A DNA stretch of 64,000 nucleotides. Source: Candidatus Eiseniibacteriota bacterium (GTDB taxonomy: Bacteria > Eisenbacteria > RBG-16-71-46 > CAIMUX01). Below, piece after piece: positions 23,740 to 63,305 of the stretch; position 1 is the first letter of the stretch; each line of letters begins with the position of its first letter. The notes under the pieces were generated by a model that was not told the DNA's origin, made no database searches, and was given only the letters and a program-made list of their open reading frames with translations. Location: NCBI GenBank assembly GCA_016712505.1, contig JADJQY010000005.1, positions 249,258 through 313,257 on the forward strand, read 5' to 3'. The translations under genes and the position numbers were made by a program.

Positions 23740-23915
23740 CCGCGTCCGCCCCTGGAGGGTACCGAGTTCGAGACAAACGATCGGACCGGAGGATTCCCCC
23801 GGTCCGATTCGCCGTTCGGCCTGTTGACCGCCCGGCAGGATGTGCCCCTGCCCGTCAGGCCCTATGAACCTGCCCGTCAGGCCGGATGAACCTGCCGCCC
23901 CCGGAGGGGCCGAGT

Positions 23916-26012: not shown

Positions 26013-26222
26013 CGTTTCTTCTCCTGTTCTCGCCACCCACCGGCCACGATCGAGATGAAGCGCCGGTTGTGTAGATGGCTTCTCGGCGCACCTGCGCCGC
26101 CTACTTGTGGACCTCTACAAACGGATGAGGATCGAGGCGCGGCCGGACTCCGGGCCGCGCTCGTTCGGGGGAGAGATGCCGGGCTGGGAGCGAATGCCGA
26201 TCCGCGGCATCCCGAAGACGTG

Positions 26223-26320
26223 TCCCAACGGACGTATCCCTACGGACGTGTCCCTACGGACGTGTCCCAACCGACGTGTGCCAGCAGACGCGTTACAGCA
26301 GACACGTTCCAGCCGGGTGT
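26223..26320. repeat. tandem array A: about 7 x 14 bp (TCCCTACGGACGTG consensus), decaying at the 3' end, in the pnp leader
   Basis: Direct reading: tcccaacggacgta / tccctacggacgtg / tccctacggacgtg / tcccaaccgacgtg / tgccagcagacgcg / ttacagcagacacg / ttccagccgggtgt. Confidence 0.85.
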
Positions 26321-26385
26321 TATCGAGCGGGCTGGTGCGTAGGCGTTCCGGCCTCTTCCTCAAGCGCCCACCCGCCGTCTGGTGC

Positions 26386-26491
26386 CCTGCCGACTGGCAG
26401 CCCTGCCGTCCGGTAACCTGCCGTCCGGTAACCTGCCGTCTGGTAACCTGGCGTCCGGTAACCTAGCGTCCGGCAGCCTGCCAGGTTCCAG
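26386..26491. repeat. tandem array B: about 7 x 15 bp (CCTGCCGTCCGGTAA), inverted relative to array A
   Basis: cctgccgactggcag / cctgccgtccggtaa x2 / cctgccgtctggtaa / cctggcgtccggtaa / cctagcgtccggcag / cctgccaggttccag. The reverse complement TTACCGGACGGCAGG resembles the array A/G core TACCGACGG. Confidence 0.85.
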
Positions 26492-27228: not shown

Positions 27229-28200
27229 TCAACGGATTCCTTCGATCGGCGGCAGGACGGGATCTCCGATTTTCGGCACCTTGCCCTGGAGTCGGAGGCG
27301 AGCCTCCTCGATGTCCCGGGCCACCGCCTCCTTCAGTGCCGGAAGCCCGTCGAATCGAATTTCCGCTCGAATTCGCGCTTCGAAATAGACCGGCAGAACT
27401 TTCCCCCTCAGATCGCCGCTCCAGTCGATCAAGTGGACTTCCACGGTATCGGCAGCATCATCTGTCAACGTTGGGCGACGTCCGACATTGATCGCCGACG
27501 GCACCACACCCCCCGCGATCTCGGACCAACCGGCCTAGACACCGCGGGCGGGCAGGCAGGTTCCCTCCGGAAAAACGAGATTGGCTGTCGGGACGAGCAG
27601 CTTGCCTCCCTCCCCCCGACCGAACCCCACCCGCCCCTCGAGCAGATAGGTCCGCCCCAGGACGCGGCTCGCCTCCTCCACCGCGCCACGGCGCAGCGCC
27701 TCCCGAACACGGGAGGAAGACCACGCGCACCCCGCATCGAGAACGGGCGGGAAAACCTCCGCCGTGAAATCCCGCTCGCGCCCGAGTTCACGCAGCAGAT
27801 CGATCGTTCCTTCGCGACGGTTCCCGAAGCGAAAATCCGCTCCCACCCAGAGCTCGCGCAGGTCGAGACGCGCCAGGAGCACGTCAAGGAAGGCGCGCGG
27901 CGAGAGTGCGGCCATGGCGGGGGAGAACGGGAGCAGCCAGGCGTGCGTGAAGCCGAGTTCGGCCAGGGCCCGCAGCTTTTGCTCCCGGCTGGCCAATCGG
28001 TGGACCGGAACACCGCGGGCCAGGATCTCGATCGGGTGGGGATGAAAGCTGATCGCCACTGGAGTGGCCTCGAGGGCGGCAGCGCGCATCAACACGGACT
28101 CGAGCAAGGCGCGGTGGCCGCGATGAACGCCGTCGAACACCCCGATGGTGGCAATCGCCGGGCCGGAGATGAACGGTTCGGAGGAACGAGGATCGAGCAC
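27229..28200 (-). pseudogene. ribF: bifunctional riboflavin kinase / FAD synthetase interrupted by an in-frame TAG (27535-27537)
   Basis: Two same-frame ORFs (27535..28200 and 27229..27507). Read through, the sequence is ...PARGV*AGWSEIAGGVVPSAINVGRRPTL..., where * aligns with the conserved Tyr of the riboflavin-kinase PxxGVY motif. Confidence 0.6.
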
Positions 28201-28336: not shown

Positions 28337-29179
28337 TCAACCGCACCCGTTGACCCGGCCGCGGGTTGCCTCGATGTGGAGCGCGTTCCGCGGAGGGACT
28401 CCGCCCTGCCGCAGCCGGCGGATCCAGGCATGGTCCACCTTGATGCCCTGCAAATGGGAGAGCGCGCGATTCATGTCGACGGCCTGCGAAAGCAACCCGT
28501 CACGAGTGCTCCCCGGGGGCGAGATGAGCCGACAGGCGTCGGCGATCTCGAATGGACCGACGTGGGTGCGGGAGAGAGTCTCGATCATCCCCACCGTGCC
28601 GACCGCCTTGGCCAGGTCCTCGGCCAGCGTCCGAATGTAGGTTCCCTTCCCGCACTCGACTTCGAAATCGACCCGCGGCAGCTCCACCTTGGTGATGGTG
28701 AAGCGGCCAATCTCCACGCGTCGCGCCTTGCGTTCCACCTCCACGCCCTTGCGCGCCAGGTCGTAGAGTCGCTGCCCGTCGATCTTGACGGCCGAGACCA
28801 TCGGAGGAATCTGCTCGATCGCTCCGATGAAGCGATCGGCCGCCGCCTGAAGCGCACCCTGATCGAGAGCCGGCACGGCCCGCTCTTCCACCACCTGTCC
28901 CCCGAGATCACCGGAGTCGGTGCGCCGCCCGAGCCTGAGCGTGCCGCGGTACCCCTTCCCGAGGTCGACCAGATGGGTGAGCAGCTTCGTGGCGCGCCCG
29001 ACGCAGACGATGAGCACGCCGTTGGCGAAGGGATCGAGACTTCCTCCGTGACCGACCTGACGGATGCCGAGGATACGACGAACCCGCGAGACCGCGTCGT
29101 GGCTGGTCCAGGGGATCTCCTTGTAGACATTGAGCACCAGGCCGGATGATTCGAGCGCGAGATCGGGATTACTCATCAT
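28337..29179 (-). CDS. truB: tRNA pseudouridine(55) synthase
   Basis: GHGGSLDPFANGVLIVCVGRATKL (catalytic Asp motif). Confidence 0.9.
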   Translation of the reverse strand: MMSNPDLALESSGLVLNVYKEIPWTSHDAVSRVRRILGIRQVGHGGSLDPFANGVLIVCVGRATKLLTHLVDLGKGYRGTLRLGRRTDSGDLGGQVVEERAVPALDQGALQAAADRFIGAIEQIPPMVSAVKIDGQRLYDLARKGVEVERKARRVEIGRFTITKVELPRVDFEVECGKGTYIRTLAEDLAKAVGTVGMIETLSRTHVGPFEIADACRLISPPGSTRDGLLSQAVDMNRALSHLQGIKVDHAWIRRLRQGGVPPRNALHIEATRGRVNGCG

Positions 29180-34626: not shown

Positions 34627-34712
34627 CCCAAAGAACCCCAGCCCAGCCCTGGCCGAAGAACCCCTGGCCGAAGAACCCCTGGCCGAAGAACCCCTGCCCG
34701 AAGAACCCCTGC
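34627..34712. repeat. tandem array C: 4-5 x 15 bp (GCCGAAGAACCCCTG) in the rimP-nusA spacer
   Basis: gccgaagaacccctg x3, then cccgaagaacccctg, then a degenerate unit. A partial copy precedes the array. Confidence 0.85.
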
Positions 34713-35674: not shown

Positions 35675-36592
35675 CTAGGGGGCGGCGAGTTCCCCCCCGT
35701 AGATCAGGTCGAGCACGACCGTCCCGACCCGCTCGAGGGTAGTCGAACTGAGCCGGTCCGGAGTGTCCTTGAGGGTGTGCCAGTTTGGATCACCCCAGCC
35801 GATGATGAGCGCGGAGGGCACCCCGCGGCGGAGCCAGGGCAGGTGATCGTCGGTAATGGCGTAGCCGACTGCCGGGTTGAACTCCGCGAAGCCGCGGCGG
35901 GCCGCCAGATCGAAGATCAGATCGGAGAGATCCGGGAAATACCGCTGCGAGTAGAGCTCGCGACCGAATTGCGCCCCCGGGGCGCCGATCATGTCCAGTA
36001 CCAGCACCCAATCGGGGAGACGACCGACCCATTCGGAGGCCAGGCGCTGGCTCCCCAGGCAGAACTCCTCGGGCTTGTCGTCCCGCCCCAGATCCTCCGC
36101 GTCGAAAAGCACCAGATCGACCCCGATCGGCGGGGGGTTGTCGCGCAGAACTCGCGCCAGGGTGAGGAGCAGCGCCGTACTCGACGCCCCGTCGTTCGCC
36201 CCCAGGACCGCCTTCGCGCGCGCCTGGGGATTCGGATCCTGGTCCGCCCAGGGGCGGGAGTCCCAGTGCGAACCGAGGAGCAGCCGCGGCCGGGCCTCGG
36301 GGCGAATCGAGATGATCAGATTGGTGCAGGCGAGCTCCCGACCATCAGCGGGCGAGATCACCTTGAAGGGGTGGGCGCGATAGGCGACGCCAAGGGAATC
36401 GAGGTGAGAACGAAAGGCCGAGAGGCAACGGGCATGCGCCGGCGTGCCCGGCACCCGGGGACCGAAGGCGCACTGTCGCCGCACCCACTTCATGGCGCTC
36501 TCCCCGGAGAGAGCCGGAGCCGCGGCCTCGACCGGGTCGGCCGACAGGAGCAGCGCCCCGAGCGCCAGCAATCGCCCGACGCCCCCCCGCAT
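35675..36592 (-). CDS. M28 family zinc peptidase (secreted aminopeptidase / glutaminyl-cyclase-like)
   Basis: Signal peptide, then LLGSHWDSRPWADQDP, GANDGASSTALLLTLA and LFDAEDLG metal-ligand motifs. Confidence 0.7.
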   Translation of the reverse strand: MRGGVGRLLALGALLLSADPVEAAAPALSGESAMKWVRRQCAFGPRVPGTPAHARCLSAFRSHLDSLGVAYRAHPFKVISPADGRELACTNLIISIRPEARPRLLLGSHWDSRPWADQDPNPQARAKAVLGANDGASSTALLLTLARVLRDNPPPIGVDLVLFDAEDLGRDDKPEEFCLGSQRLASEWVGRLPDWVLVLDMIGAPGAQFGRELYSQRYFPDLSDLIFDLAARRGFAEFNPAVGYAITDDHLPWLRRGVPSALIIGWGDPNWHTLKDTPDRLSSTTLERVGTVVLDLIYGGELAAP

Positions 36593-39500
36593 CAGAAGGT
36601 GAAGGCGGCCGAGACGGAGATGCTGACCAGGCGTGTCGTGTTCCCCTCGTTCTTGTTGTCGGTGTTCTGCCCCACGCTCAGCGATGCCTTCCCGTTGATG
36701 TTGTCGGTGAACTGATAGTTGGCGTCGGTGGTGACCTTCAGACTGGAACGATCATCCCCGATCACGTCCTGCCCCGCCCCGAAGCGCGAGGTGGTCGATT
36801 TGTTCTGCGACCAGTCGATCGCCCCTGAGAGGTCGAGACGGGTTTGCACCACCTTTTTCTGGTTCGTGACCGGCACCACCACCGTCTTGGTCAAGCGGAT
36901 CGTCTTCTTGACCGTGAGCAGAACCTTGCGCGAGATCGACTCGTTCAGGTTCCCCGGTGGCGGATTGTAGCTCTGGGTGCGGGTGACCCGCGAGTCGCTG
37001 CTCAAGGAGGCGGTCATCTCGTTGTTCAGCGTCAGGTTCAGGTTCAGCAGGGGCGAAAACGCGGTGCTCCTCTGCTCCGTGTCCCGGGTACGCCCCTGGG
37101 AAGCGGTCGTCTGGAGCTCTCGCGAGAAGTTGGTCGTCGCCTGGATGCTCTTTACCCGCGACTCCAGGCCGAGGACCTTGACCAGCGCCTTTGGCGCCGT
37201 GCCCCAGTTCACGTTGAGATCGGGCCACTTCGTGGTGACCCGCGTCGTCGGCTGCTGCGCGTTCTGCCGTTGGTTCGATTCGGTCCGGTTTGCGCTCGTC
37301 CCCACGCTCACATTCTGCGGCATCCGGAGCGAGGTGGTCAGGGTGAAGGTCTTCCCTTCGCTCTCGGTCGACTGGGCCAGCCCTACCGGGCGAGTGTCTC
37401 CGCCCGGGTTGTCACTCAGCCCGAGCTGATAGAGCATCGAGGGAGTGCCGCGCTGGCTGCTGCGACTATTGTCGTGGGTGAGCGAGTACTGCAGCTGCAT
37501 CGGTTCGAGTTTGAACCCGCGCGGGCCGGAGCCGGCCGACGAGTTTCCCGACTTCTCTCCCTTCCCCCCCCGACCCAGTTTCGCCAGCTCGCCCAACGCG
37601 AGGCGAGCGGAGAAGCTGGTCGAGTTCCCCGAGCGGAACGAGTTGGTCCGCTCCTGGCGGTCCTGCTGCAGGTTGGTGTACTGCAGGAAGTCGATCCCCG
37701 AGCGCCCGCTCCAGGTGACCTTGGGCGCCACCGAGGTCTTCAAGATCGGGATGTCGTAGTTGGTGCTCAGATCCTGTTGTCGCGCGGTCTCACGACCGAG
37801 GTTCAGCCCGAGCAGGCGTGGGGCCCCTTCTCGGAGCTGCAGATCCCGGTTCGAGCTGATCCGGTAGTTCAAGAACTGCAACGGTCGCATCCCCGCTCCC
37901 AGGTTGAGCGCGGCGCTATTGCGGTTGGAGGTCGGGGCGAGGCGGAAGGGCGCGGCGAGGTCGCTACGGACGTAGCGACGGCTCCGGTTCCGCTGCCCAT
38001 TCAGGGTGGCGCTGACCGAGTTGGGCAGCAACTGCGCCCGCCACCCCTTGCCAAGGTTGAATGCGGCAAGGTTGTCCAGCGCCATTGCCCAGGAGACGCC
38101 CCCGGTGGCATTGGTCGTGGTGTCGCGCTGGGTTGGGGTGAGCGAGGTCGCCTTTCGATGCGAGCCGTTCAGCCTGAACGGGGCCAGGCCGTAGCGCACC
38201 CATGGGTTCTCCGATGACTCCTTCTCGATGCTGACCTCGAGCCGTCGCTCGTTGGTCTCGCTGATGTCGCGATCGGTGGCTCGATCGAGCACCAGGTCGC
38301 TGTTGGTCTGGAACTTCGGGACGCGACGGTCCCGCGCGGCCGACCAGCGGACCGGCAGGCGGATCCCGAGCGGCGAGAGGAATCGATCGACATTGACGGT
38401 GCTGGCCAGGTTCACCGCCGTGGTGGTGGTCCCGGAGCCGCGCTCCTTTCCGATCGAGAGGAAGTCGGCGTTGGTCCGGGTGAGGTTGCCGCTGAAGCTG
38501 GCCACGTCCGAGAGATTGGTCTGGACGCTCATGCGCGTGGCGTACCCCCGGTCCTTCTTGACCTGGGTGAGGCGCAGCTCGTTGATCCAGACGTTGCCCC
38601 GCCCGAGAGTCGACTGGCCCCGGTTCGCGACGAAGAAAGCGATCCGCTGGATGCTGGTCAGGCTCGGATTCCCCTTTCGCGAGATGACCGCACCGTTGGG
38701 CAGGCTCCGACTGGCGATCTTGGTCACGGAGTCCGGCACGTCGAGCTGCAGCTGGGACATCTCTGCGAAGTCCATCCGAACCAGGTACCAGTCGCTCAAG
38801 ATCGGAATCCGGTACTCGTAGTAGTTGGTGGTGTTGCTGTTGGCATCGCGACAGAGCCGGATGGTCGCCTGGAGATTCGCGTCCCCCAGTTCCGACCGTT
38901 TGCGCAGGTAGAACTCCATGTTCTCGTAGAGCGTGTAGTCCTGCCGGGTGGGATAGGTGCGGTAGATCGACGCCTTGTGCGCCGGGGCGAAGTTCGACAG
39001 CTCGAGGGTGATCGACTGCTCGCGCTCGGTCACGTTGTTCTGTTTCCCCGGCTTGAACGGTGGATCGTAGACCGCGGCATCGTCCTTGTTGTTCAGCACG
39101 CTGACGAAGAAGTCCTCCCCCGGGCCGATCTGCTCCGGCGGGAGCGGCCGGTCGGCCAGGTTGGCCAGCGGCCCCTCGTACCAGCGGTTGCCGATGATCT
39201 CCAGCCCGCCGATCTGGAGCAGGGTCGAGTCGGCCAAGCTGTCGACCCAGACCCGGGCGTGGAGGATCTTCTCCCAGCTCGGCTCGATTCCGGGTCGGCT
39301 TTCGATCCGCACCAGGGAGTCACTGTCGAGCGGGATGCGGACCCGGCGCCAGCCGTTGTCCGATCGGATGGCGAAGTTGAGATCGTTCCGTCCTTCGTAG
39401 TCGCGGAAGACGTCGGTTTCCCAGAGCGTGGAGTCGCCGAGATCGATCGACACGGTGAAGTAGCTGCTCAGGGTGGAAAGTGAGCTGTCGTCGTTCAGGT

Positions 39501-39840
39501 CCTCGCTGTCCATCTCCTGATTGCCTTCGGTGCCGTTGACCTGAGCGTACTTGCGCGGACTGGTCTCGCTCACGTCGTCATCGAACTTGTAGTCGTCGCG
39601 CGGATCGTCGCCCGATCGACCTGATTGGATCCGGTCGAGGCCCACGTCCTCGTCTCCCTGGGTTCCCTGGTCGAGGCGGCCGTCGTTGTTCTGATCCTCG
39701 GTGTCGAGCTTGCCGTTCGGAGTGACGATCGTTCGCTCGCTCGGTGGTCGGCGGAGATCATTGGGATCACCGCGGTACCAGATGGCGTCCTCGTTCACCG
39801 AGCCAAGGTCGATGTGGAGGCGGCCGCGCCGCTTCGCCAC
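36592..39840 (-). CDS. SprA-like giant cell-surface / outer-membrane protein, C-terminal fragment (frame 0)
   Basis: 1082-aa ORF rich in Asn/Thr/Ser beta-strand-like repeats, ending in ...SISVSAAFTF (beta-barrel C-terminal Phe). Contiguous with two upstream frames. Confidence 0.5.
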   Translation of the reverse strand: MAKRRGRLHIDLGSVNEDAIWYRGDPNDLRRPPSERTIVTPNGKLDTEDQNNDGRLDQGTQGDEDVGLDRIQSGRSGDDPRDDYKFDDDVSETSPRKYAQVNGTEGNQEMDSEDLNDDSSLSTLSSYFTVSIDLGDSTLWETDVFRDYEGRNDLNFAIRSDNGWRRVRIPLDSDSLVRIESRPGIEPSWEKILHARVWVDSLADSTLLQIGGLEIIGNRWYEGPLANLADRPLPPEQIGPGEDFFVSVLNNKDDAAVYDPPFKPGKQNNVTEREQSITLELSNFAPAHKASIYRTYPTRQDYTLYENMEFYLRKRSELGDANLQATIRLCRDANSNTTNYYEYRIPILSDWYLVRMDFAEMSQLQLDVPDSVTKIASRSLPNGAVISRKGNPSLTSIQRIAFFVANRGQSTLGRGNVWINELRLTQVKKDRGYATRMSVQTNLSDVASFSGNLTRTNADFLSIGKERGSGTTTTAVNLASTVNVDRFLSPLGIRLPVRWSAARDRRVPKFQTNSDLVLDRATDRDISETNERRLEVSIEKESSENPWVRYGLAPFRLNGSHRKATSLTPTQRDTTTNATGGVSWAMALDNLAAFNLGKGWRAQLLPNSVSATLNGQRNRSRRYVRSDLAAPFRLAPTSNRNSAALNLGAGMRPLQFLNYRISSNRDLQLREGAPRLLGLNLGRETARQQDLSTNYDIPILKTSVAPKVTWSGRSGIDFLQYTNLQQDRQERTNSFRSGNSTSFSARLALGELAKLGRGGKGEKSGNSSAGSGPRGFKLEPMQLQYSLTHDNSRSSQRGTPSMLYQLGLSDNPGGDTRPVGLAQSTESEGKTFTLTTSLRMPQNVSVGTSANRTESNQRQNAQQPTTRVTTKWPDLNVNWGTAPKALVKVLGLESRVKSIQATTNFSRELQTTASQGRTRDTEQRSTAFSPLLNLNLTLNNEMTASLSSDSRVTRTQSYNPPPGNLNESISRKVLLTVKKTIRLTKTVVVPVTNQKKVVQTRLDLSGAIDWSQNKSTTSRFGAGQDVIGDDRSSLKVTTDANYQFTDNINGKASLSVGQNTDNKNEGNTTRLVSISVSAAFTF

Positions 39841-42590
39841 CCCTGGCGCCAGGCGTCGAAGCGCACGAAGTCGTTGATCCAGATGTCGAGGAACTGGGCC
39901 CGCGACAGATCCGCCCCGCGGGTGGAGATCGACTGCACCACCCCGGACCAGGAACGCTCCCGCTCCCCATCCGTCTCCCCCGCCGGGAACACCTTCATCT
40001 CGAGCACCGTGCGATTGTCATCCCCTTCGGTCTGCTCGAGGGTCGGCTGCAGGTCCCCCTCCCGCACCTTGGCCCGAGGGGAGTACCAGTAGAGTTCCCC
40101 TTTGCGCACGGAGGCCTCCTGCTCGCCCAGATCGTCGAGCAGCGGGGCGGGAATCGAGGCCGGTCGCCAGGCGCGGCGGTTGAGGTTGAGCGACTGAATG
40201 TCCTTCACCCCGTCGAAGTCGTCGACGTACAGCTTGTCCCGGGTGTTCGGATTGGGAAACGACATGCCGAGACCGGCGTCGAGGTCGAAGCGGGACGGTG
40301 CGCGAGCCGTGACCCCGGGCAGGGCGTTGGCCAGTCGGGTCAGCATCCAGGCTTCGGTCTTGTACGAACCGGTGAACTCACCGACCAAGGTGTGGGCCGG
40401 CTCCTCCCCCAGGCGCGGTCGTTTTCCCTGCAGACCGGGCACTCCCCCCTTGCTCTCGTAAAGCCAGGCGGAGGAGAAGTTGAGCTTGCTGTCCTGCGGC
40501 CGGTAGGCTCCGGCCATCCCCGCGAGCGTCTTCTGATTTCCCCCTCCGAACGGGATGAATGAATAGGTGACCTGGATGTTCTCGCTCTGCTGCACGTTCG
40601 CGGCAGCCAGGATCTCGATCTCCCCGAGGTCGTAGTCGATGGTGTAGTCGCGGTCGCGCACCAACAGTCGCCCGCCGGCCCGCACCGACTCGCTCCCCTC
40701 GAGGATGTTGTAGGCATTGAGCTGGATGTTGCTCACCGGACTCCGGTAGGTGACCTCGATGTAGTACTGGCTGTCTCCGGGCTGCGGCGTACCCGACCAG
40801 TCGTAGACCCGCGGGGCGCGGAGGGCGGGGTCGATCGGGATGGTGTTCTCCGCGGTGCGTTGCTTGAGGGAGGTGCCGTCCGGACGGAAGCGGTAGAAGA
40901 GAAACTGGCCGCAGGTCGCGGGCTCGAGTCCAAGGTCGGCCGAGTCGGGATCGAACGGCCGGAGGTCGGGGAAGTAGAGCAGTCCGCTGCCCAGATCGAC
41001 CTGCCCGGGGTCGACCTCCTCGTCGGTTCCGGCCGTCGTCTGCCCCTCGGAGTTCAGGATGCCGAGGTCGAGCCCGGTCCGCTGGAGAAACGTGACGTTC
41101 GAGATCTGGTCCGGCTCGTTGTCGGTGCCCAGGGTCCGCTTCAGCCGGACGCGAAGCTGGAGCGAGCCGGCTTCGATCGATCGAGCCTGCAGGTCGTAGA
41201 CATTCTTGAGCTCGAGGTTCCGGACCGAGGCCCACGGACCCTCGGTCAGGTCGTTGCTCACATTGAGCGCGCTACCCGGACGGATCATCTTCAGGCTCAG
41301 CGTGTCGCCACTGGCGATGAACCCCACCCGCTCGATCGGTGTGGTGGTGCGCACCAGGTTTCCCGTCCCGTCCACCCCCATGGCCACGCCGCGGTAAGCC
41401 ACGGCCAGGACGTCGTCCTCGTCGAGCGGACGACTGAGCACCAGCCAGGGATTGCCCCGGTTGCGGTCGCGATTGATGACGTAGTCCTCGTCGACCCCCA
41501 TCTTGAGCAGGTGGAAGTTCCCCACTGCCACCGAGTCGACATCGGTGCCCACCGGCGGGCGAGGATCGCGACCGGTCACCGTCACCTTGCTCGCCCGGGC
41601 GTCGAGCTGGACGTCGTTGTTGCGCACCTTGTCGTCCACGAAGACGTAGAGCGAGTCATCGTCCACGTCCCACGGGCAGCCGTTCGGGTCGCGCAGGAAG
41701 AAGAACTTGCCCCGGATGAAGTCGGTGTCGTCGATCCGGATGGTGGTCACCTCGGCCGATCGTTCGATCGACTTCGAGTCGTTCTTTCCCTCCTGTTTGG
41801 AGAGAATCATGTTCACGTCGACCGCGGCCAGCTTGGCCAGCGCGCTGATGCCGAAGAGACCCTCGGCGCGGCCGTTGTAGGTCACGTACTGCGTTCCCGG
41901 GAGCGAGAGGTTGGTGTTCCCGAGGTTCACCTCCTGCACGATCTCGTCCTCGTAGCCGTCGTACTTGATCTTGATCCGGTTGGAGAGCGGCGTCGTGGCC
42001 TGACTCGCTTGATCGACGTCGACCTGCACCTTGTCGCCGATCGTACCGGTGAGGTTGAGGTTCAGTTCCTGCATCATGTCGAGCTGGGGGAACTTCGATT
42101 GCCCGCGACCGAACTCGGTCTCCCGCGCATTCGGACGCCACTGGCTGGTCCCGCCGAAGGTGATCCGCTCGCTGCCGCGCACCAGGAGGTTCGGCTCCCC
42201 CTTGCCGAAGATCGACTGGAGCTGGGACGGGACCTCGAAGGGGACGGTCAGCTTCACCATCCCCTTGTTCCCCTTGGCCACGTTGGCCCGCCCCTTCTCC
42301 GCGGTCTTCAGCTGGGTCAACCACTCCCGGCGGAAGTTCCGCAGCCCGAGGCGACGGAGGTACTCGGCGCGGGTCAGGCGCAGCCGCGGTCCAATCGGAG
42401 TCTGGCGATGCAGCTGCTGCACCTCGACCAGGGGGAATCGAGCTGGGCCGAGACCTGGAGCTGCAACGGATCGAAGGCATCGAGATGCGGTTCGGTCGCC
42501 TGGAGGAAGCGGAAGCCGAGGCTGTCGAGTCGCGCCTGTTCCGCCGGCTTCAAGAACCCCCGCGCGCGCACCGTCTCGCGAGCCGACCAC
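39795..42590 (-). CDS. SprA-like giant protein, middle fragment (different frame)
   Basis: 931-aa ORF (TFGGTSQWRPNARETEFGRGQSKFPQLDMMQELNLNLTG...). Overlaps the downstream fragment by 46 nt at a CCCC run. Confidence 0.5.
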   Translation of the reverse strand: MVGSRDGARAGVLEAGGTGATRQPRLPLPPGDRTASRCLRSVAAPGLGPARFPLVEVQQLHRQTPIGPRLRLTRAEYLRRLGLRNFRREWLTQLKTAEKGRANVAKGNKGMVKLTVPFEVPSQLQSIFGKGEPNLLVRGSERITFGGTSQWRPNARETEFGRGQSKFPQLDMMQELNLNLTGTIGDKVQVDVDQASQATTPLSNRIKIKYDGYEDEIVQEVNLGNTNLSLPGTQYVTYNGRAEGLFGISALAKLAAVDVNMILSKQEGKNDSKSIERSAEVTTIRIDDTDFIRGKFFFLRDPNGCPWDVDDDSLYVFVDDKVRNNDVQLDARASKVTVTGRDPRPPVGTDVDSVAVGNFHLLKMGVDEDYVINRDRNRGNPWLVLSRPLDEDDVLAVAYRGVAMGVDGTGNLVRTTTPIERVGFIASGDTLSLKMIRPGSALNVSNDLTEGPWASVRNLELKNVYDLQARSIEAGSLQLRVRLKRTLGTDNEPDQISNVTFLQRTGLDLGILNSEGQTTAGTDEEVDPGQVDLGSGLLYFPDLRPFDPDSADLGLEPATCGQFLFYRFRPDGTSLKQRTAENTIPIDPALRAPRVYDWSGTPQPGDSQYYIEVTYRSPVSNIQLNAYNILEGSESVRAGGRLLVRDRDYTIDYDLGEIEILAAANVQQSENIQVTYSFIPFGGGNQKTLAGMAGAYRPQDSKLNFSSAWLYESKGGVPGLQGKRPRLGEEPAHTLVGEFTGSYKTEAWMLTRLANALPGVTARAPSRFDLDAGLGMSFPNPNTRDKLYVDDFDGVKDIQSLNLNRRAWRPASIPAPLLDDLGEQEASVRKGELYWYSPRAKVREGDLQPTLEQTEGDDNRTVLEMKVFPAGETDGERERSWSGVVQSISTRGADLSRAQFLDIWINDFVRFDAWRQGWRSGAAASTSTLAR

Positions 42591-43198
42591 CGATTGACCA
42601 CGCTGTGGAGCAGGGCATCTTCGCTCGGGAACATCGAGACCGGACGGGTCCAGAGACCGACGCCGGGGGGAATCTCGATTTCACGGCTCGGCATCGGGCG
42701 CGCCTCGACCGGAGTGCCGGTGAGTTCGGGCGGCGGGGTCGAGAAGGGATCCACCGGCGGGGGTGGGGTGGCGCGGCCCTCCCCTTCGGCGGCGGCCGAG
42801 TCGACGAGCGCGCTGCCCCGGGCGGAGTCAGGGAGGGCGGTCAGGGACGAATCGCCCAGAACCGCGCTCGAGTCCAAGCCCGCCGCCTGGAGCACCTCCT
42901 GCAGGCTCGAATCGGGCCGTTCCGGGGTCGGTTCGAGGCTGTCTCCCGCCTCCCGTTGTGCGGCCACAGAGGGCAAGCTCGCCCCCGAATCCAGGACATC
43001 CGCGGGAGCATTGCCGATAGTCGAGTCGACGGGCGGGGGCAAGGGACGCGGCCGCGGGGTGGCGTTGACCGGATCCTCGATCGCTCCGGGCGCCCCGGCC
43101 TGGGACCGGGGACCGAAGAGGATCAAGGTCAGGGCAACAAGCAGCACCCATCCTACCGCCGGTCGGCGGGAGCCAGGCTCGATCTGTGCTGTAGGACG
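42374..43198 (-). CDS. SprA-like giant protein, N-terminal fragment with signal peptide (third frame)
   Basis: Candidate TTG start near 43198, then RRPAVGWVLLVALTLILFGPRSQAGA (signal peptide). The frame switches to the middle fragment near a GGGGG run around 42432-42436. Confidence 0.4.
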   Translation of the reverse strand, partial: RPTAQIEPGSRRPAVGWVLLVALTLILFGPRSQAGAPGAIEDPVNATPRPRPLPPPVDSTIGNAPADVLDSGASLPSVAAQREAGDSLEPTPERPDSSLQEVLQAAGLDSSAVLGDSSLTALPDSARGSALVDSAAAEGEGRATPPPPVDPFSTPPPELTGTPVEARPMPSREIEIPPGVGLWTRPVSMFPSEDALLHSVVNRWSARETVRARGFLKPAEQARLDSLGFRFLQATEPHLDAFDPLQLQVSAQLDSPWSRCSSCIARLRLDRGCA

Positions 43199-43285: not shown

Positions 43286-43360
43286 CTCTCCCGGTCCGGG
43301 CTCTCCCGGTCCGGGCTCTCCCGGCCCGGGCCCTCCCGGTCCAAACCCTCGTGGTCGGGA
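43286..43360. repeat. tandem array D: about 5 x 15 bp (CTCTCCCGGTCCGGG) in the sprA/lptF divergent spacer
   Basis: ctctcccggtccggg x2 / ctctcccggcccggg / ccctcccggtccaaa / ccctcgtggtcggga. Confidence 0.85.
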
Positions 43361-44999: not shown

Positions 45000-46079
45000 A
45001 TGAGGATCCTCGATCGCTACCTGGTGCGGGAGTACCTCAACTACTGCTTCCTCGGCATCCTCACCTTCGTCGGCCTGTTCATCGTGGTCGACCTGTTCGA
45101 GAAGCTGGATGTCTTCGTCGACCACAAGGCGGGGGCCGGGCTGGTCGCGCGTTACTACCTCTACGGGGCGGGGACGATCGTCACCCAGGTGCTCCCGATC
45201 GCGCTTCTGCTCGGTTCCATCCTGAGCCTCAGCCAGCTCCGGAAATACAACGAACTGGCCGCGATGCAAGGCTCGGGACAAAGCCCGTGGCGCCTCGCCC
45301 GCCCTCTGCTCCTCGCCGGACTCGCCTTCTCCATCGGGCAGTACGCGCTCAATGAGGGGCTGGGACCCAGGATGTACGAAGGGCAGAAGCGGATCCTGAA
45401 CGAGGAGATCAAGCGTCTCTCGGGCACTGACTCACAGAGCCGTTCCGACGTGCGGTTCGTCGGGGCCGGCGGTCGCTTCTTCATCGCGCAGTTTTTCGAT
45501 GCCCGGCGCGAGACCTTGCGCGGCGTCTCGGTCCAGTACCTCGCTCCCCCCCGTCTCACCGCGCGGATCGACGCCGAACGCGCCAGCTGGGTCGACGGCA
45601 CCTGGCGGTTCGAGAATGGGCACCTCAGGAGTTTCTCCGACGCCGGTTCACACTCGATCCCGTTTCGGGCCTACGCCAGTTCGGAGATCGACGAGACCCC
45701 GCGCGACTTCGCCCGGCAGAGCGTCGACCCCTTCCACCTGGGCATGCGGGATCTGTGGCGCTACGCCGAACGGATCCGCGGCTCCGGCGGCGAGACGCAG
45801 AAGTACCTGACCAACTTCCATCTGCGCGCGTCGTTCCCCCTGGCGGGGCTGATCATGACGCTCCTGGGCGCGGCGCTCTCGCTCCGCGTGGTGCGAGGGG
45901 GCAACATCGCCGTCGGCCTGGGGCTCTCGGTGTCGGTCGGCTTCGCCTTCTTCGCCTTCGTGCGCATCGGTCAGGCGCTGGGATACAACGGCACGATCCC
46001 GCCGATGCTCGCAGCCTGGCTCGGAAATCTGGTCTTCACCGCGATCGGGTTCTTGCTCTTCTGGAAAGTGAGCCGCTAG
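45000..46079 (+). CDS. lptG: LPS export ABC transporter permease (YjgP/YjgQ family)
   Basis: [37 protein letters not shown]. Confidence 0.75.
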
Positions 46080-47491
46080 CCGGCGGGCGGGGGCGGAGGA
46101 GATTCCGCGCCTCCGGGAGCACTCCCGGCCGGTGGGGTCGGCGGCGCCGCTTCGCTCCTCATCTCTTCCAGGAAGTGGGTGTCCACCCCGCCACGACGAA
46201 ACCCTGGATGGCGCAGCACCTCGGCCTGGAACTCCATCGTGGTGTCGATCCCCTCGATCCGGGATTCGTCCAGCGCCCGCAGCATCCGGTCGATCGCCTC
46301 CTCGCGCGTCGCGCCGTAGGCGATCAGCTTGGCGATCATTGAATCGTAGAACGGCGGAATCGAGTAGCCGGAGTAGATGTGGGTGTCGAGCCGGATCCCC
46401 GGCCCCCCGGCGAAGTGCAGGCTCTCGATCTTTCCCGGCGAGGGGCGGAAGTTCTGGCGGGGCGATTCCGCATTGATCCGGCACTCGATGGCGTGCCCGC
46501 GGGGAATCACTTCCTCCTGCCCGAAGGGGAGCGGCTCACCCGCGGCCAGACGGATCTGCAGCTTCACCAGGTCGAGGGAGAGAATCATCTCGGTCACCGG
46601 ATGCTCGACCTGCAGACGGGTGTTCATCTCCATGAAGTAGTACGAGCCGTCCGCGTCGTAGAGGAACTCCATCGTGCCCAGCCCGCGGTAGCCGATCTGC
46701 TTCGCCCCCCGGCAGGCCGCCTCCCCCATCTTCGTACGGATGACCGGATCGAGCCCGGGTCCGGGCGCCTCCTCGATCAGCTTCTGGTGCCGCCGCTGAA
46801 CCGAGCAGTCGCGCTCGCAGAGGTGGACCACGTTTCCGAAGATATCGGCCGCCAGCTGGATCTCGATATGGCGCGGCCGTTCGAGGAACTTCTCCAGGTA
46901 CATCGCATCGCTGCTGAAGGCGGCCATCGCCTCGGCCTGCGCCATCGGGAGCGCGCGCTCGAGTTCGGCCCCGCTGCGCACCACGCGCATCCCCTTGCCC
47001 CCGCCTCCGTCTCGCGCCTTCAAGATCACCGGGTAGCCGACCTGCTCGGCGATTTCCAGCGCGTGCGGGACCGACTCCAGAATCCCCTCACTCCCGGGCA
47101 GAGTGGGGACCTTCGCCGCCTTCATGGTCGACTTCGCGACGCTCTTGTCCCCCATCAGGCGGATCGCCTCCGGCGTCGGGCCGATGAAGGTGATTCCAGA
47201 CGACTCCACCGCTTCGGCGAACTGCGCCTTCTCGGAGAGAAACCCGTAGCCGGGATGGATGGCGTCAGCCTTGGTGATGTCGGCCGCGGCGAGCAGGCGC
47301 GGGATGGCGAGGTAGCTCTCCGCGCTCTTCGCCGGCCCGATGCAGACCGATTCGTCCGCGATCTTGACGTGCAGCGACTCGCGATCGGCTTCCGAGTAGA
47401 CCGCGACTGTCCGGACTCCGAGCTCCCGACAGGCGCGGATCACCCGCACCGCGATTTCCCCTCGATTGGCGATCAGTACTTTCTTGAACAT
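46076..47491 (-). CDS. accC: acetyl-CoA carboxylase biotin carboxylase subunit
   Basis: [28 protein letters not shown]-grasp domain, [14 protein letters not shown]. Confidence 0.95.
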
Positions 47492-47567: not shown

Positions 47568-48785
47568 TCAGAAGCGGACGATGCCGGTCGGCCCTCCGCC
47601 GGCCGCGCGTCGCCCATCGGGCGCCGGCGACTCCTCGGTGGGCGCGGCTTCCTCCGTCGTCTCCCCGTCCTCGGCCTGCTTCTTCCCTTCGAACGCGTCC
47701 CAGGATGTGTCGCTCGAGGACTGGATGCCCTTGACGCGCAGTTCGAACTCGGTCGAGTTGGTCGCGCTCTTCAGCGCCTGTTCCAGGGTGATGAGCCCGA
47801 GCCGATACAGCCGCATGAGCGACTGATCGAAGGTCTGCATTCCATACTGCGTGGCCCCATCCTGGATGGCCGATCTTATCAGAAGCGTTTTGTCGTGGCT
47901 AAGCAGGTACTCCTGGATCGTGGGAGTGTTGATCAGGACCTCGGCCGCGGGAACGCGCCCCTGGCCGGTCGAGCGCGGGATCAGGCGCAGCGAGACGACC
48001 GCCTGCAAGGTGCTCGCCAGGAGGAAGCGGACCTCGTCGTGCTGGTGGGGCGGATAGAACGAGATGATGCGGTTCACGGTCTGCGCGGCATCGATGGTGT
48101 GCAAGGTGGAAAAGACAAGGTGACCGGTGTCGGCCGCCATGAGCGCGATCGACATCGTCTCCCGATCGCGGATCTCACCGAGGAGAATCACGTCCGGGTC
48201 CTGGCGCAGAATGTGTCGGAGCGCCGCGGAGTAGGTCTCGGTGTCGAGTCCGACTTCGCGCTGGGTGATGAACGCCTTGTCATCCCGGTGCAGGAACTCG
48301 ATCGGATCTTCGACCGTGATGATCGAGCGCGGCTCGCGTCGATTGATGCAATCGATCATCGACGCCAGCGTGGTCGACTTTCCGCTTCCGACCGTTCCCG
48401 TGACCAGGATGAGCCCACGCCGTTTGAGCGCGATCTGCTCCACGATCGGCGGGAGGTTCAGGTCCTCGAACCCCGGCACGCCCAGCGGGACGTGTCGGAT
48501 GGCGAGCGAGATGGTGCCGCGTTGGAAGTAGATGTTGCAGCGGAAACGGGCGAACCCGGGCAGGCCGAAGGCGAAGTCGATCTACCGCTCGGAGAGGAAC
48601 TTCTCCTTCTGGGTGGGACTCAGCAGCTGATCGAGCACCTCATCCAGCTCGCGCGCGGTGGCCGGGGCGTCGTTGAGTTGGAGCAAGGCCCCATCCACGC
48701 GGAGCTGCGGGCGGGCGCCCAGCTTGATGTGGAGGTCGGAGGCGCCACGCTCGATCATCTGGTCCAGAACGTTGCGGAAATCCAT
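47568..48785 (-). pseudogene. pilT: type IV pilus twitching-motility ATPase PilT interrupted by an in-frame TAG (48582-48584)
   Basis: N-terminal ORF MDFRNVLDQMIERGASDLHIKLG...FLSER stops at TAG. The same frame continues IDFAFGLPGFARFRCN...VTGTVGSGKSTTL (Walker A). The TAG aligns with a conserved Glu/Thr codon. Confidence 0.6.
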
Positions 48786-48900: not shown

Positions 48901-49431
<531 letters not shown>

Positions 49432-49486: not shown

Positions 49487-49930
49487 TCACGCGCGCAGTA
49501 GGCGATCAAGCGCCATCAGGGCCGCAAGATAGCTCCCCGGGCCGAATCCCATCACCACCCCCCGGCAGACTGGAGCGATGTGGTCGACCTGGCGGAAGCC
49601 CTCGCGGGCGAACAGATTGCTGAGATGGACCTCGATGACCGGGATCGGAAGGGCCGCGACGGCATCGCGGAGCGAGATACTGGTATGGGTCAGGCCACCC
49701 GGGTTGATCAGCACGCCGTCGGCATCCTGCCGCGCTGCGTGCAGCTGGTCGATCAGTGCCCCTTCGTGATTGGACTGGAAGGTCGAAAGGGTCAGGTTTC
49801 GGGCCCTCGCCTCCTGGTCGAGCAGAGCATCGATCTCGGCCAAGGTCGTCGTCCCGTACACCCCGGGCTCCCGAACCCCGAGGAGGTTCAGGTTCGGTCC
49901 ATGGAGAACCAGGATCCGCCCGGCGCTCAT
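49487..49930 (-). CDS. aroQ: type II 3-dehydroquinate dehydratase
   Basis: ILVLHGPNLNLLG...INPGGLTHTS...HLSN. Confidence 0.9.
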   Translation of the reverse strand: MSAGRILVLHGPNLNLLGVREPGVYGTTTLAEIDALLDQEARARNLTLSTFQSNHEGALIDQLHAARQDADGVLINPGGLTHTSISLRDAVAALPIPVIEVHLSNLFAREGFRQVDHIAPVCRGVVMGFGPGSYLAALMALDRLLRA

Positions 49931-54852: not shown

Positions 54853-56148
54853 GTGCCGAAGCTTCGCGGGATCGCGAATGGCCTCGTTTGGGTCCTGGTC
54901 ACACTCGCCACCCAAAGCGTCGAATCGCGAGCGACGATCCCCCCGGATGTGCCTCTGGTCAACCGACCCGGGGTCGGCACGCGAGCGCTCGGCATGGGCG
55001 GGGCATCGGTCGGAGTTTCCGAGGACTATCACGCCCTGGCGATCAATCCGGCGGGGCTGGCCCAGCTCCGCCGGGTCGAGTTCGGCCTGGAGTTCAAGCG
55101 CAAGTCGATCACCTCGGATGCGACCTACCTGGGCGAAACCCATTCCGTGCCGCTGGACAAGACGCGCATCCAGTCGATCGGCTTCGCCTATCCCTTCCCA
55201 ACCTACCGAGGCGCGCTGGTCGTCGGGATGTCGTATCAGCGGGTGGCCGACCTCGATCAGGACTATTACCGCGCCGGCCGAGGCGGGGAGATCCAGAGCG
55301 AGGTGGAGACGATCTTCGAAGAGGGTTCGGTGGGCGCCTATCAGGCGGGATTCGCGGTGGCCGCGAGTCCCAAATTGAATCTGGGTGCCACGGCGACGTT
55401 CTACTCCGGGGGCTCGGATCGCGAGCGATCGTTCACCTATCGGTCCACGAACGGCATCGACCGCGAGCGGACCAACACCACGCAGGAAATGGACATCCAC
55501 GCGATCAGCGGATCCCTGGGCGCCCTGGTGCAACTGCGGCCCGATCTGCGGCTGGGGCTGAGCCTCCATCTCCCCGAGAGCTTCACCCTCGAGGGGTCGG
55601 GAGACGATGACATCGTGCGGGTCGGGACCGAGCCGCCCGATACCCTGGACATCCTGGAGCCCTACACGTTCTCCGACGAACTCACGCTGCCGGCGCGATT
55701 CTCCGCGGGTCTGGCCTGGACCAGGAACGGTTGGTTGGCCAGCGCCGATGCGGCGATCGCCGACTGGAAACAGATCGACTACTACGGCCCGCTCCGCACC
55801 GAGGAGCGTGAGTACGTCTACCGCACCGAGGTCGACCTTCGGCTCGGCGTGGAATACACGTTCCCGAACACGCCGCTGCGGCTGCGCGCCGGATACGCCT
55901 CGCAGCCGGTGGCCTACCGCCCGATCGCCACCGACGTGTTCCGCGGGGAGTTCGCCTTCGCCGACTTCGAACAGGACCGACGCACCTGGGCGTTCGGCGG
56001 GAGCGTGCTGCTGGAGGAGTCGATGATGCTGGAGGCCGCCTATGTGACCGGCGGCTACGAGCGCCGCGGACGGAGCCCTCGGGGCGTGGAGACGATCGAG
56101 AAGCTCGATCAGAACGACCTGTTGGTCGGGGTCACGTTTCGGCTCTGA
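54853..56148 (+). CDS. FadL/OMPP1-like outer-membrane beta-barrel protein (PorV-like)
   Basis: Signal peptide, then RALGMGGASVGVSEDYHALAINPAGLA (N-terminal hatch NPA motif of FadL-family barrels). Alternating beta-strand pattern to the C-terminus. Confidence 0.5.
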   Translation: MPKLRGIANGLVWVLVTLATQSVESRATIPPDVPLVNRPGVGTRALGMGGASVGVSEDYHALAINPAGLAQLRRVEFGLEFKRKSITSDATYLGETHSVPLDKTRIQSIGFAYPFPTYRGALVVGMSYQRVADLDQDYYRAGRGGEIQSEVETIFEEGSVGAYQAGFAVAASPKLNLGATATFYSGGSDRERSFTYRSTNGIDRERTNTTQEMDIHAISGSLGALVQLRPDLRLGLSLHLPESFTLEGSGDDDIVRVGTEPPDTLDILEPYTFSDELTLPARFSAGLAWTRNGWLASADAAIADWKQIDYYGPLRTEEREYVYRTEVDLRLGVEYTFPNTPLRLRAGYASQPVAYRPIATDVFRGEFAFADFEQDRRTWAFGGSVLLEESMMLEAAYVTGGYERRGRSPRGVETIEKLDQNDLLVGVTFRL

Positions 56149-56163
56149 GTCGGGTCAACTCTG

Positions 56164-56270
56164 GGGCAGGGCCAGTCCTGAGGTCGGGCCAGTCCTGAGG
56201 TCGGGCCAGTCCTGAGGTCGGGCCAGTTCTGAGGTCGAGTCAGCTCTGCGGTTGGGTCAGATCTGCGGCC
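56164..56270. repeat. tandem array E: about 6 x 17 bp (GGGCCAGTCCTGAGGTC) between the convergent OMP and rnc genes
   Basis: gggccagtcctgaggtc x3 / gggccagttctgaggtc / gagtcagctctgcggtt / gggtcagatctgcggcc. Confidence 0.85.
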
Positions 56271-59082: not shown

Positions 59083-59195
59083 TGTTCGATCGGGGGCCCG
59101 TTCAATCGGGGGCCCGTTCAATCGGGGGCCCGTTCGATCGGGGGCCCGTTCGATCGGGGGCCTGTTCGATCCGGGCCCTATTCGATCAGGGCTCC
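59083..59195. repeat. tandem array F: about 7 x 16 bp (GTTCGATCGGGGGCCC) in the fabG-acpP spacer
   Basis: gttcgatcgggggccc / gttcaatcgggggccc x2 / gttcgatcgggggccc x2 / gttcgatccgggccct / attcgatcagggctcct. Each unit contains CGATCG and GGGCCC palindromes. Confidence 0.85.
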
Positions 59196-63047: not shown

Positions 63048-63230
63048 CCGGCTCACGTCTGGCACCGGACGGCACGCAGCGACCGGTCAGCGACCGGGCC
63101 GGGGGGCTCAGAAAGGATCCGCATCGTGTGGATTCGCGCCTCCGCGAAAGGGACTCCGGGCGGTCGACTCGTCCGGGGTCTCGCCATGGGTTCGCCTGCC
63201 GGAGAGACCCGGACCATCGGGGACGGGGTC

Positions 63231-63305
63231 CCTACGGACGGTGTCCCTACCGACGGTTTCCCTACCGACGGTTTCAGTGCCGACGGGGTCACTGAAACCG
63301 AGGAC
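63231..63305. repeat. tandem array G: about 5 x 15 bp (TCCCTACGGACGGTG), same family as array A, in the rpmF-plsX spacer
   Basis: tccctacggacggtg / tccctaccgacggtt x2 / tcagtgccgacgggg / tcactgaaaccgagg. Confidence 0.85.

Follow-up and report, generated by a model that had tools for sequence, protein, structure and literature searches.

A private in-frame amber codon in pilT, within a conserved accB-pilT-accC gene string of a Candidatus Eiseniibacteriota genome

The gene for a PilT/PilU-family ATPase in the 64-kb stretch of Candidatus Eiseniibacteriota DNA analysed here (the window) is interrupted by an in-frame TAG. This codon is a private allele in a conserved gene order, on a contig where TAG serves as a normal stop and where other disruptive differences occur. 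That the underlying base is erroneous, and no real recent mutation, is our inference. The explanation that we favour, and to which we give somewhat better than an even chance, is a mistake of consensus or base calling, in a metagenome assembly that resembles long-read ones, at an ordinary pilT in its ancestral position. The locus would then hold an ordinary gene for a PilT-family hexameric ATPase in an aroQ-accB-pilT-accC string, and the organism would make the full 405-aa protein with Glu68, with nothing recoded. The features on which the argument turns are as follows.

47568..48785, minus strand: pilT (PilT/PilU-family type IVa pilus ATPase), 405 sense codons and TGA, with the TAG as codon 68
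48582..48584, minus strand: in-frame amber codon of pilT, TAG (plus-strand CTA)
48585..48785, minus strand: N-terminal pilT fragment of 67 codons, the sole product if the TAG terminates translation
47568..48479, minus strand: remainder of pilT 3' of the TAG, of which the first possible restart, a GTG at 48479, would give 303 aa
48369..48404, minus strand: Walker A motif (P-loop) of pilT, VTGTVGSGKSTT, residues 128-139, intact
48901..49431, minus strand: accB (biotin carboxyl carrier protein), 115 bp upstream of pilT; Pfam Biotin_lipoyl, as read from the identical public gene
46076..47491, minus strand: accC (biotin carboxylase), 76 bp downstream of pilT; its stop is TAG
49487..49930, minus strand: aroQ (type II 3-dehydroquinase), upstream of accB; PF01220
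27229..28200, minus strand: ribF (FAD synthetase / riboflavin kinase), with a TAG at 27535-27537 (Tyr222, TAT to TAG)

The amber codon at position 68 of pilT

The sequence-only reading from which this analysis started described a full pilT between accB and accC on the same strand, and a TAG that follows KFLSER at 48582-48584. Both descriptions are correct, coordinates included; the interpretation placed on them is only partly supported. The reading frame at codon 68 runs KFLSER-stop-IDFAFGLPGFARFRCN, and the variable base is 48584, which is A in the window and C in all other assemblies, such that a single G-to-T change on the coding strand has turned GAG (Glu68) into TAG. Three independent, near-identical assemblies (GCA_020851285.1 contig JADZDC010000176.1, Logan SRR28161545 and Logan SRR25822718) have GAG at this position and encode an intact 405-aa protein. 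The TAG base is the sole difference between the window and a 1467-bp Logan contig (L003), and is likewise the sole difference in pilT from the NCBI contig. An ORF cut short by an early stop, where relatives keep it intact, is one mark of a pseudogene; as pilT carries no more substitutions or frameshifts, the further decay that would also mark one is lacking.

Comparison with more distant relatives drew on the best 80 loci from a scan of species-representative genomes, a set that does not include the species of the window and in which the closest locus is 70% identical. Codon 68 in these loci is GAG in 56, GAA in 23 and GAT in 1, giving Glu in 79/80 and Asp in 1/80, and an alignment of 44 homologues puts the conservation of Glu68 at 90% or more. 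The position had been described beforehand as a conserved Glu/Thr site, of which the Glu is borne out while Thr was not seen. No TAG is found at codon 68 in any of the 80 related loci or the three near-identical assemblies (0/80 and 0/3), and the 80 loci are also free of internal stops, those in the alignment falling beyond residue 373, at natural gene ends. The exact 67-aa PilT fragment has no record in any public assembly searched, and exact look-ups of the 303-aa PilT remainder, and of the AccC and PlsX products of the window, returned nothing on record. A 31-mer spanning codon 68, in which the variable base was left as N, had no matches in JGI metagenomes and hence carries no allele information. 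The 303-aa restart product would be without residues 1-102 of the N-terminal domain, and from the architecture of the PilT hexamer it is expected to be inactive.

Differences between the window and other assemblies

Across window positions 6655-58785, ~55 substitutions separate the window from the NCBI contig (identity about 99.7-99.9%). Those in coding sequence comprise 22 synonymous, 18 missense and 2 nonsense changes. The missense omega, calculated from the first 19 synonymous and 16 missense changes, is ~0.3, so that most of the differences look like strain variation under purifying selection, and window alleles are shared in a mosaic manner with SRR25822718. With 19-22 synonymous changes, ~2 nonsense changes would be expected if these were unselected, and ~0.1 at an omega of 0.05, for which the probability of two or more is 0.005. 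The nonsense count therefore fits the unselected expectation, and the disruptive changes look untouched by selection, as would be true of errors or of extremely recent mutations.

The second nonsense change lies in ribF, at codon 222 of 323, where the riboflavin kinase domain starts. This gene is called intact at 323 aa in the NCBI MAG, which has TAT at the site, and in five more distant Logan contigs; all relatives whose ribF differences were read have TAT at codon 222. The sequence-only reading had paired the two codons as sense-to-TAG events in the window. The ribF TAG is indeed present; the special meaning attached to the pair falls away, given that both are private one-base changes to what is an ordinary terminator in this DNA.

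Other disruptive differences take the form of short deletions. Compared with the NCBI MAG, the window lacks one nucleotide in each of two C/G homopolymer runs (39840 and 42431), and sprA (minus strand, about 36592-43150; type IX secretion), which is intact at 2185 aa in that MAG, appears in the window as three overlapping ORFs. At 28362, the loss of 1 nt from a G run shifts the frame of truB (minus strand) from residue 273 of 318 onwards, and at 23748, a 2-nt deletion in a C run is intergenic, between pnp and an M16 peptidase gene; the truB and 23748 deletions are differences from the NCBI contig specifically. A private allele accompanied by four homopolymer deletions, three of which frameshift genes that are intact elsewhere, is what would be expected of an assembly or consensus error, and deletions in homopolymers are what typically remains uncorrected in long-read assemblies. 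The contiguity of the window points the same way. The NCBI contig and a Logan contig, both from short-read assemblies, stop at 59130, part-way through an array of 16-bp tandem repeats (59084-59191) across which the window continues. This suggests that the window derives from a more contiguous, long-read-type assembly; it is from contiguity and the type of indel that we judge its presumed long-read nature. Two observations temper this account. Both TAG changes are transversions outside homopolymers, which is atypical of long-read error and speaks against an error at these bases. Further, differences in homopolymer or repeat length also occur among the public assemblies, for example in the Logan contig L002 at 48816, so that not every indel need be an error.

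The chief alternative is that the TAG is a genuine and very recent nonsense allele, by which PilT is cut after 67 residues, retraction is lost and the gene becomes a nascent pseudogene. We consider this possible and on the whole unlikely. The codon is unambiguous in the sequence, real strain variation with a synonymous bias exists between the assemblies, and the rest of pilT is undamaged, as would be expected of a very young allele; moreover, loss-of-function mutants of pilT are viable in many bacteria. Against this, the same 52 kb would need to carry real null alleles in ribF and truB, and two in sprA. RibF is normally essential, and stopping it at residue 222 of 323 takes away the greater part of its riboflavin kinase domain. 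The other substitutions, meanwhile, give evidence of effective purifying selection (omega ~0.3). In addition, no other assembly has the allele, the truncated products are both without record, and a stop 1 kb upstream of accC in a tight gene string might risk polarity on an essential gene. Were the TAG real, the organism would be a retraction-null strain, hyperpiliated and non-twitching, which may resist pilus-dependent phages.

Two further ideas about the differences between assemblies were rejected. The change H278Y in AccC was considered as a signature of error; relatives differ among themselves at residue 278 (L, F, V, Y, M, I), which renders the change uninformative. The window might also have been a public contig with planted changes, a notion set aside on account of the synonymous bias, the differences in array length, and the mosaic of alleles shared with SRR25822718.

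Short tandem arrays, with units of 14-17 bp in 2-7 copies, recur along the window at the following positions.

23847-23896: tandem array
26216-26290: tandem array
26370-26482: tandem array
34647-34711: tandem array
43286-43342: tandem array
56144-56265: tandem array
59084-59191: tandem array
63222-63290: tandem array

Those checked are intergenic, as in the interval from rpsO to pnp and upstream of acpP. Assemblies vary in the length of the arrays, with differences of 15 nt and 25 nt at 26442 and 34646.

TAG as a terminator in the window

Coding ORFs were approximated by high third-position GC (GC3), and the 44 ORFs in this proxy end in TGA (28/44), TAG (14/44) or TAA (2/44). The genes that end in TAG include infB, acpP, pnp, accC, a Poly_export gene and a DUF3108 gene, among others. 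When all ORFs were listed with TAG as sense, and ten candidate read-through ORFs translated, the result joined acpP to fabF, and infB to the ORF that follows it; with pilT and ribF set aside, each TAG proved to be a natural gene end with a new gene behind it. The rarity or absence of TAG as a terminator that recoding would entail is therefore not seen (14/44), and nor is any recurrence of the in-frame TAG in relatives, at either the pilT or the ribF site. In this GC-rich coding sequence, 63% of the possible single-base nonsense changes lead to TAG, and two nonsense changes would both be TAG with a probability of ~0.39, so that the occurrence of two TAGs is not remarkable.

Amber codons are recoded in several settings, including pyrrolysine decoding, the reading of TAG as Gln in some phages, and laboratory suppressor strains (supE/supF). 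Such systems resemble the window in having an in-frame TAG in genes that are otherwise intact and conserved. They differ from it in that TAG is a frequent and genuine terminator in the window, where the in-frame TAGs are unconserved among near-identical strains, and where neither a suppressor tRNA nor a pyl gene was seen. It is accordingly very improbable, in our estimation, that the two TAGs are real and read through, by an amber-suppressor tRNA or through tolerance of UAG, leaving pilT and ribF functional. In favour of such read-through, the two in-frame stops in conserved genes of the window are both TAG, with TGA and TAA unrepresented, one of the two lies in a gene expected to be essential, and GAG and TAT are each one step from TAG. 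Opposed to it are the fourteen TAG-terminated ORFs and the fusions noted above, the ease with which two TAGs arise by chance, and the sense codons of near-identical strains, among which nothing of the TAGs is conserved. Further, no TAG stop has been switched to another stop relative to the NCBI contig. A search for amber-suppressor tRNAs had been suggested in the sequence-only reading: the 64-kb window contains no tRNA gene of any kind, and no Rfam match.

Reassignment of TAG to an amino acid in this lineage, whether by a change of genetic code or as pyrrolysine, has the two in-frame TAGs as its sole recommendation and is rejected as having practically no chance, being refuted as far as the window can show by the TAGs at the natural ends of infB, acpP, pnp and the other genes named above, by relatives that never have TAG at the two sites, and by the replacement of different residues, Glu and Tyr, at each.

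In-frame stops in metagenome-assembled genomes are easily mistaken for recoding, and in GC-rich genomes nonsense changes are to be expected as TAG. The case of pilT and ribF has a value for quality control in this respect, in that near-identical public assemblies quickly expose both TAGs as private single-base differences.

The accB-pilT-accC string and its ATPase

In the window, aroB, aroQ, accB, pilT and accC follow one another in this order on the minus strand. The accC gene has the Pfam domains Biotin_carb_N, CPSase_L_D2 and Biotin_carb_C, as scored on the public gene. In many bacteria accB and accC are adjacent, as in the aroQ-accB-accC string of E. coli. The window shares with that string the succession of aroQ, accB and accC on one strand, and differs from it, together with three related phyla, in having pilT between accB and accC. 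In the near-identical assemblies, pilT has accB as its immediate upstream neighbour and accC as its immediate downstream one. Among the best 80 loci, accB and/or accC adjoin pilT in 61, and both do so in 59/61; accB adjoins pilT in 59 of the related loci (median spacer 49 bp) and accC in 60 (median spacer 32 bp), and several stop and start codons overlap in the linked loci. Those linked loci that could be named belong to Eisenbacteria, Krumholzibacteriota and Gemmatimonadota, with one labelled Bryobacterales, and in Gemmatimonadota aroQ is found about 1.2-1.6 kb further upstream of accB. The 19 unlinked loci derive from Acidobacteriota (Thermoanaerobaculia, Holophagae), Nitrospirota, Thermodesulfovibrionales and Desulfuromonadaceae, and some lie on short contigs.

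The linkage in three phyla, together with the short spacers, indicates that the placement of pilT is ancestral to this group and probably operonic, and suggests an ancient insertion of pilT in the common ancestor of these phyla. To judge by the spacing, pilT is probably co-transcribed with accB and accC. A promoter scan found no promoter-like sites between 46000 and 51400, and the two terminator-like sites in this interval are no more than in shuffled sequence (mean 2.1); spacing is therefore the basis for the proposed operon structure.

The sequence-only reading had taken pilT for an insertion into an accB-accC pair that is normally contiguous, and had itself named an intact pilT at the same place in relatives as the evidence against this. 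Such relatives exist, both in the near-identical assemblies and in the 61 linked loci, and that claim is overturned. A recent insertion into a formerly contiguous accB-accC operon of this genome draws on the adjacency of these genes in many other bacteria, and is already refuted, with a negligible chance of being right, by the linkage and short spacers in related loci, by a neighbour-joining tree that gathers the unlinked PilTs into a single clade free of linked ones, and by an unremarkable local GC of 0.665-0.670, as in the rest of the window.

We found no description of the accB-pilT-accC linkage, or of Eisenbacteria pili, in the literature searched. The conserved order is only a mildly new point, being an observation of synteny rather than of mechanism. 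It could nevertheless serve as a synteny marker for the three phyla, and it raises the modest question of why a PilT-family ATPase has been kept inside an acetyl-CoA carboxylase operon.

With codon 68 masked, the window protein finds its best database match in P0001, a protein of 405 aa that is encoded in a Candidatus Eisenbacteria MAG (GCA_020851285.1) and on the two Logan contigs; it is 100% identical, has Glu at residue 68, and is named by NCBI 'PilT/PilU family type 4a pilus ATPase'. The intact P0001, from which the window product differs at codon 68 only, scores 450.7 bits against TIGR01420 (cut-off 319.1) and spans model positions 2-342 of 343; this places it in the family, for which the model does not separate PilT from PilU. 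Residues G130, V132, G133, S134, G135, K136 and T138 of the Walker A motif are invariant in an alignment of 44 sequences (A1), as are E159/D160/P161/E163, E204 and T227/H229, among others, all of which are present in the window, and the protein thereby has the Walker A motif and catalytic boxes of the secretion-ATPase superfamily. The AIRNLIRE motif of PilT proper is lacking, the aligned segment being TIQEYLLSHDK (TIQEYLLS), and the protein is therefore filed as a member of the PilT/PilU family, and not as PilT sensu stricto.

Proteins of the PilT/PilU family form hexamers that use ATP hydrolysis to power the disassembly of type IVa pili. The closest solved structure is 5FL3 (E = 1.7e-113, residues 6-350), deposited as 'pili retraction protein PilT'; others are 5ZFQ and 6OJX, deposited as twitching motility pilus retraction protein/ATPase, and 2EWV and 2GSZ, deposited as twitching motility protein PilT. 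The window protein has in common with these solved PilTs a two-domain layout, the Walker A sequence GSGKST, and the conserved Asp/Glu and His boxes. A Glu aligns to codon 68 both in 5FL3 ('kEmDFAy') and in 5ZFQ ('nELDlSFG'). The differences are that the window ORF is broken at codon 68, that TIQEYLLSHDK stands in place of AIRNLIREDK in 5ZFQ and YVRELLKDEEK in 5FL3, and that a C-terminal tail extends past the region aligned to the solved structures. This tail, of ~50 residues, has invariant S358, D359, W362 and F365 in the alignment (S-D-x-x-W-x-x-F).

A role in pilus retraction is assigned to this ATPase by family membership. The window contains no pilus genes. A search for other pilT/pilU paralogues had been suggested in the sequence-only reading, and there is no second secretion-ATPase homologue in the 64 kb. 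The ATPase might instead be expressed with acetyl-CoA carboxylase and perhaps be functionally coupled to it, in the synthesis of envelope lipids, rather than act as a plain retraction motor. This idea, beside which the missing AIRNLIRE and the conserved S-D-x-x-W-x-x-F tail may be cited, strikes us as speculative and improbable.

Two smaller features of the string are recorded here. The tail, encoded at 47571-47720, is common to the PilT homologues of this group, and ends in a conserved terminal R-F or K-Y. Downstream of pilT, accC (minus strand) and lptG (plus strand) are convergent, and their overlapping TAG stops share the palindrome CTAG at 46076-46079.
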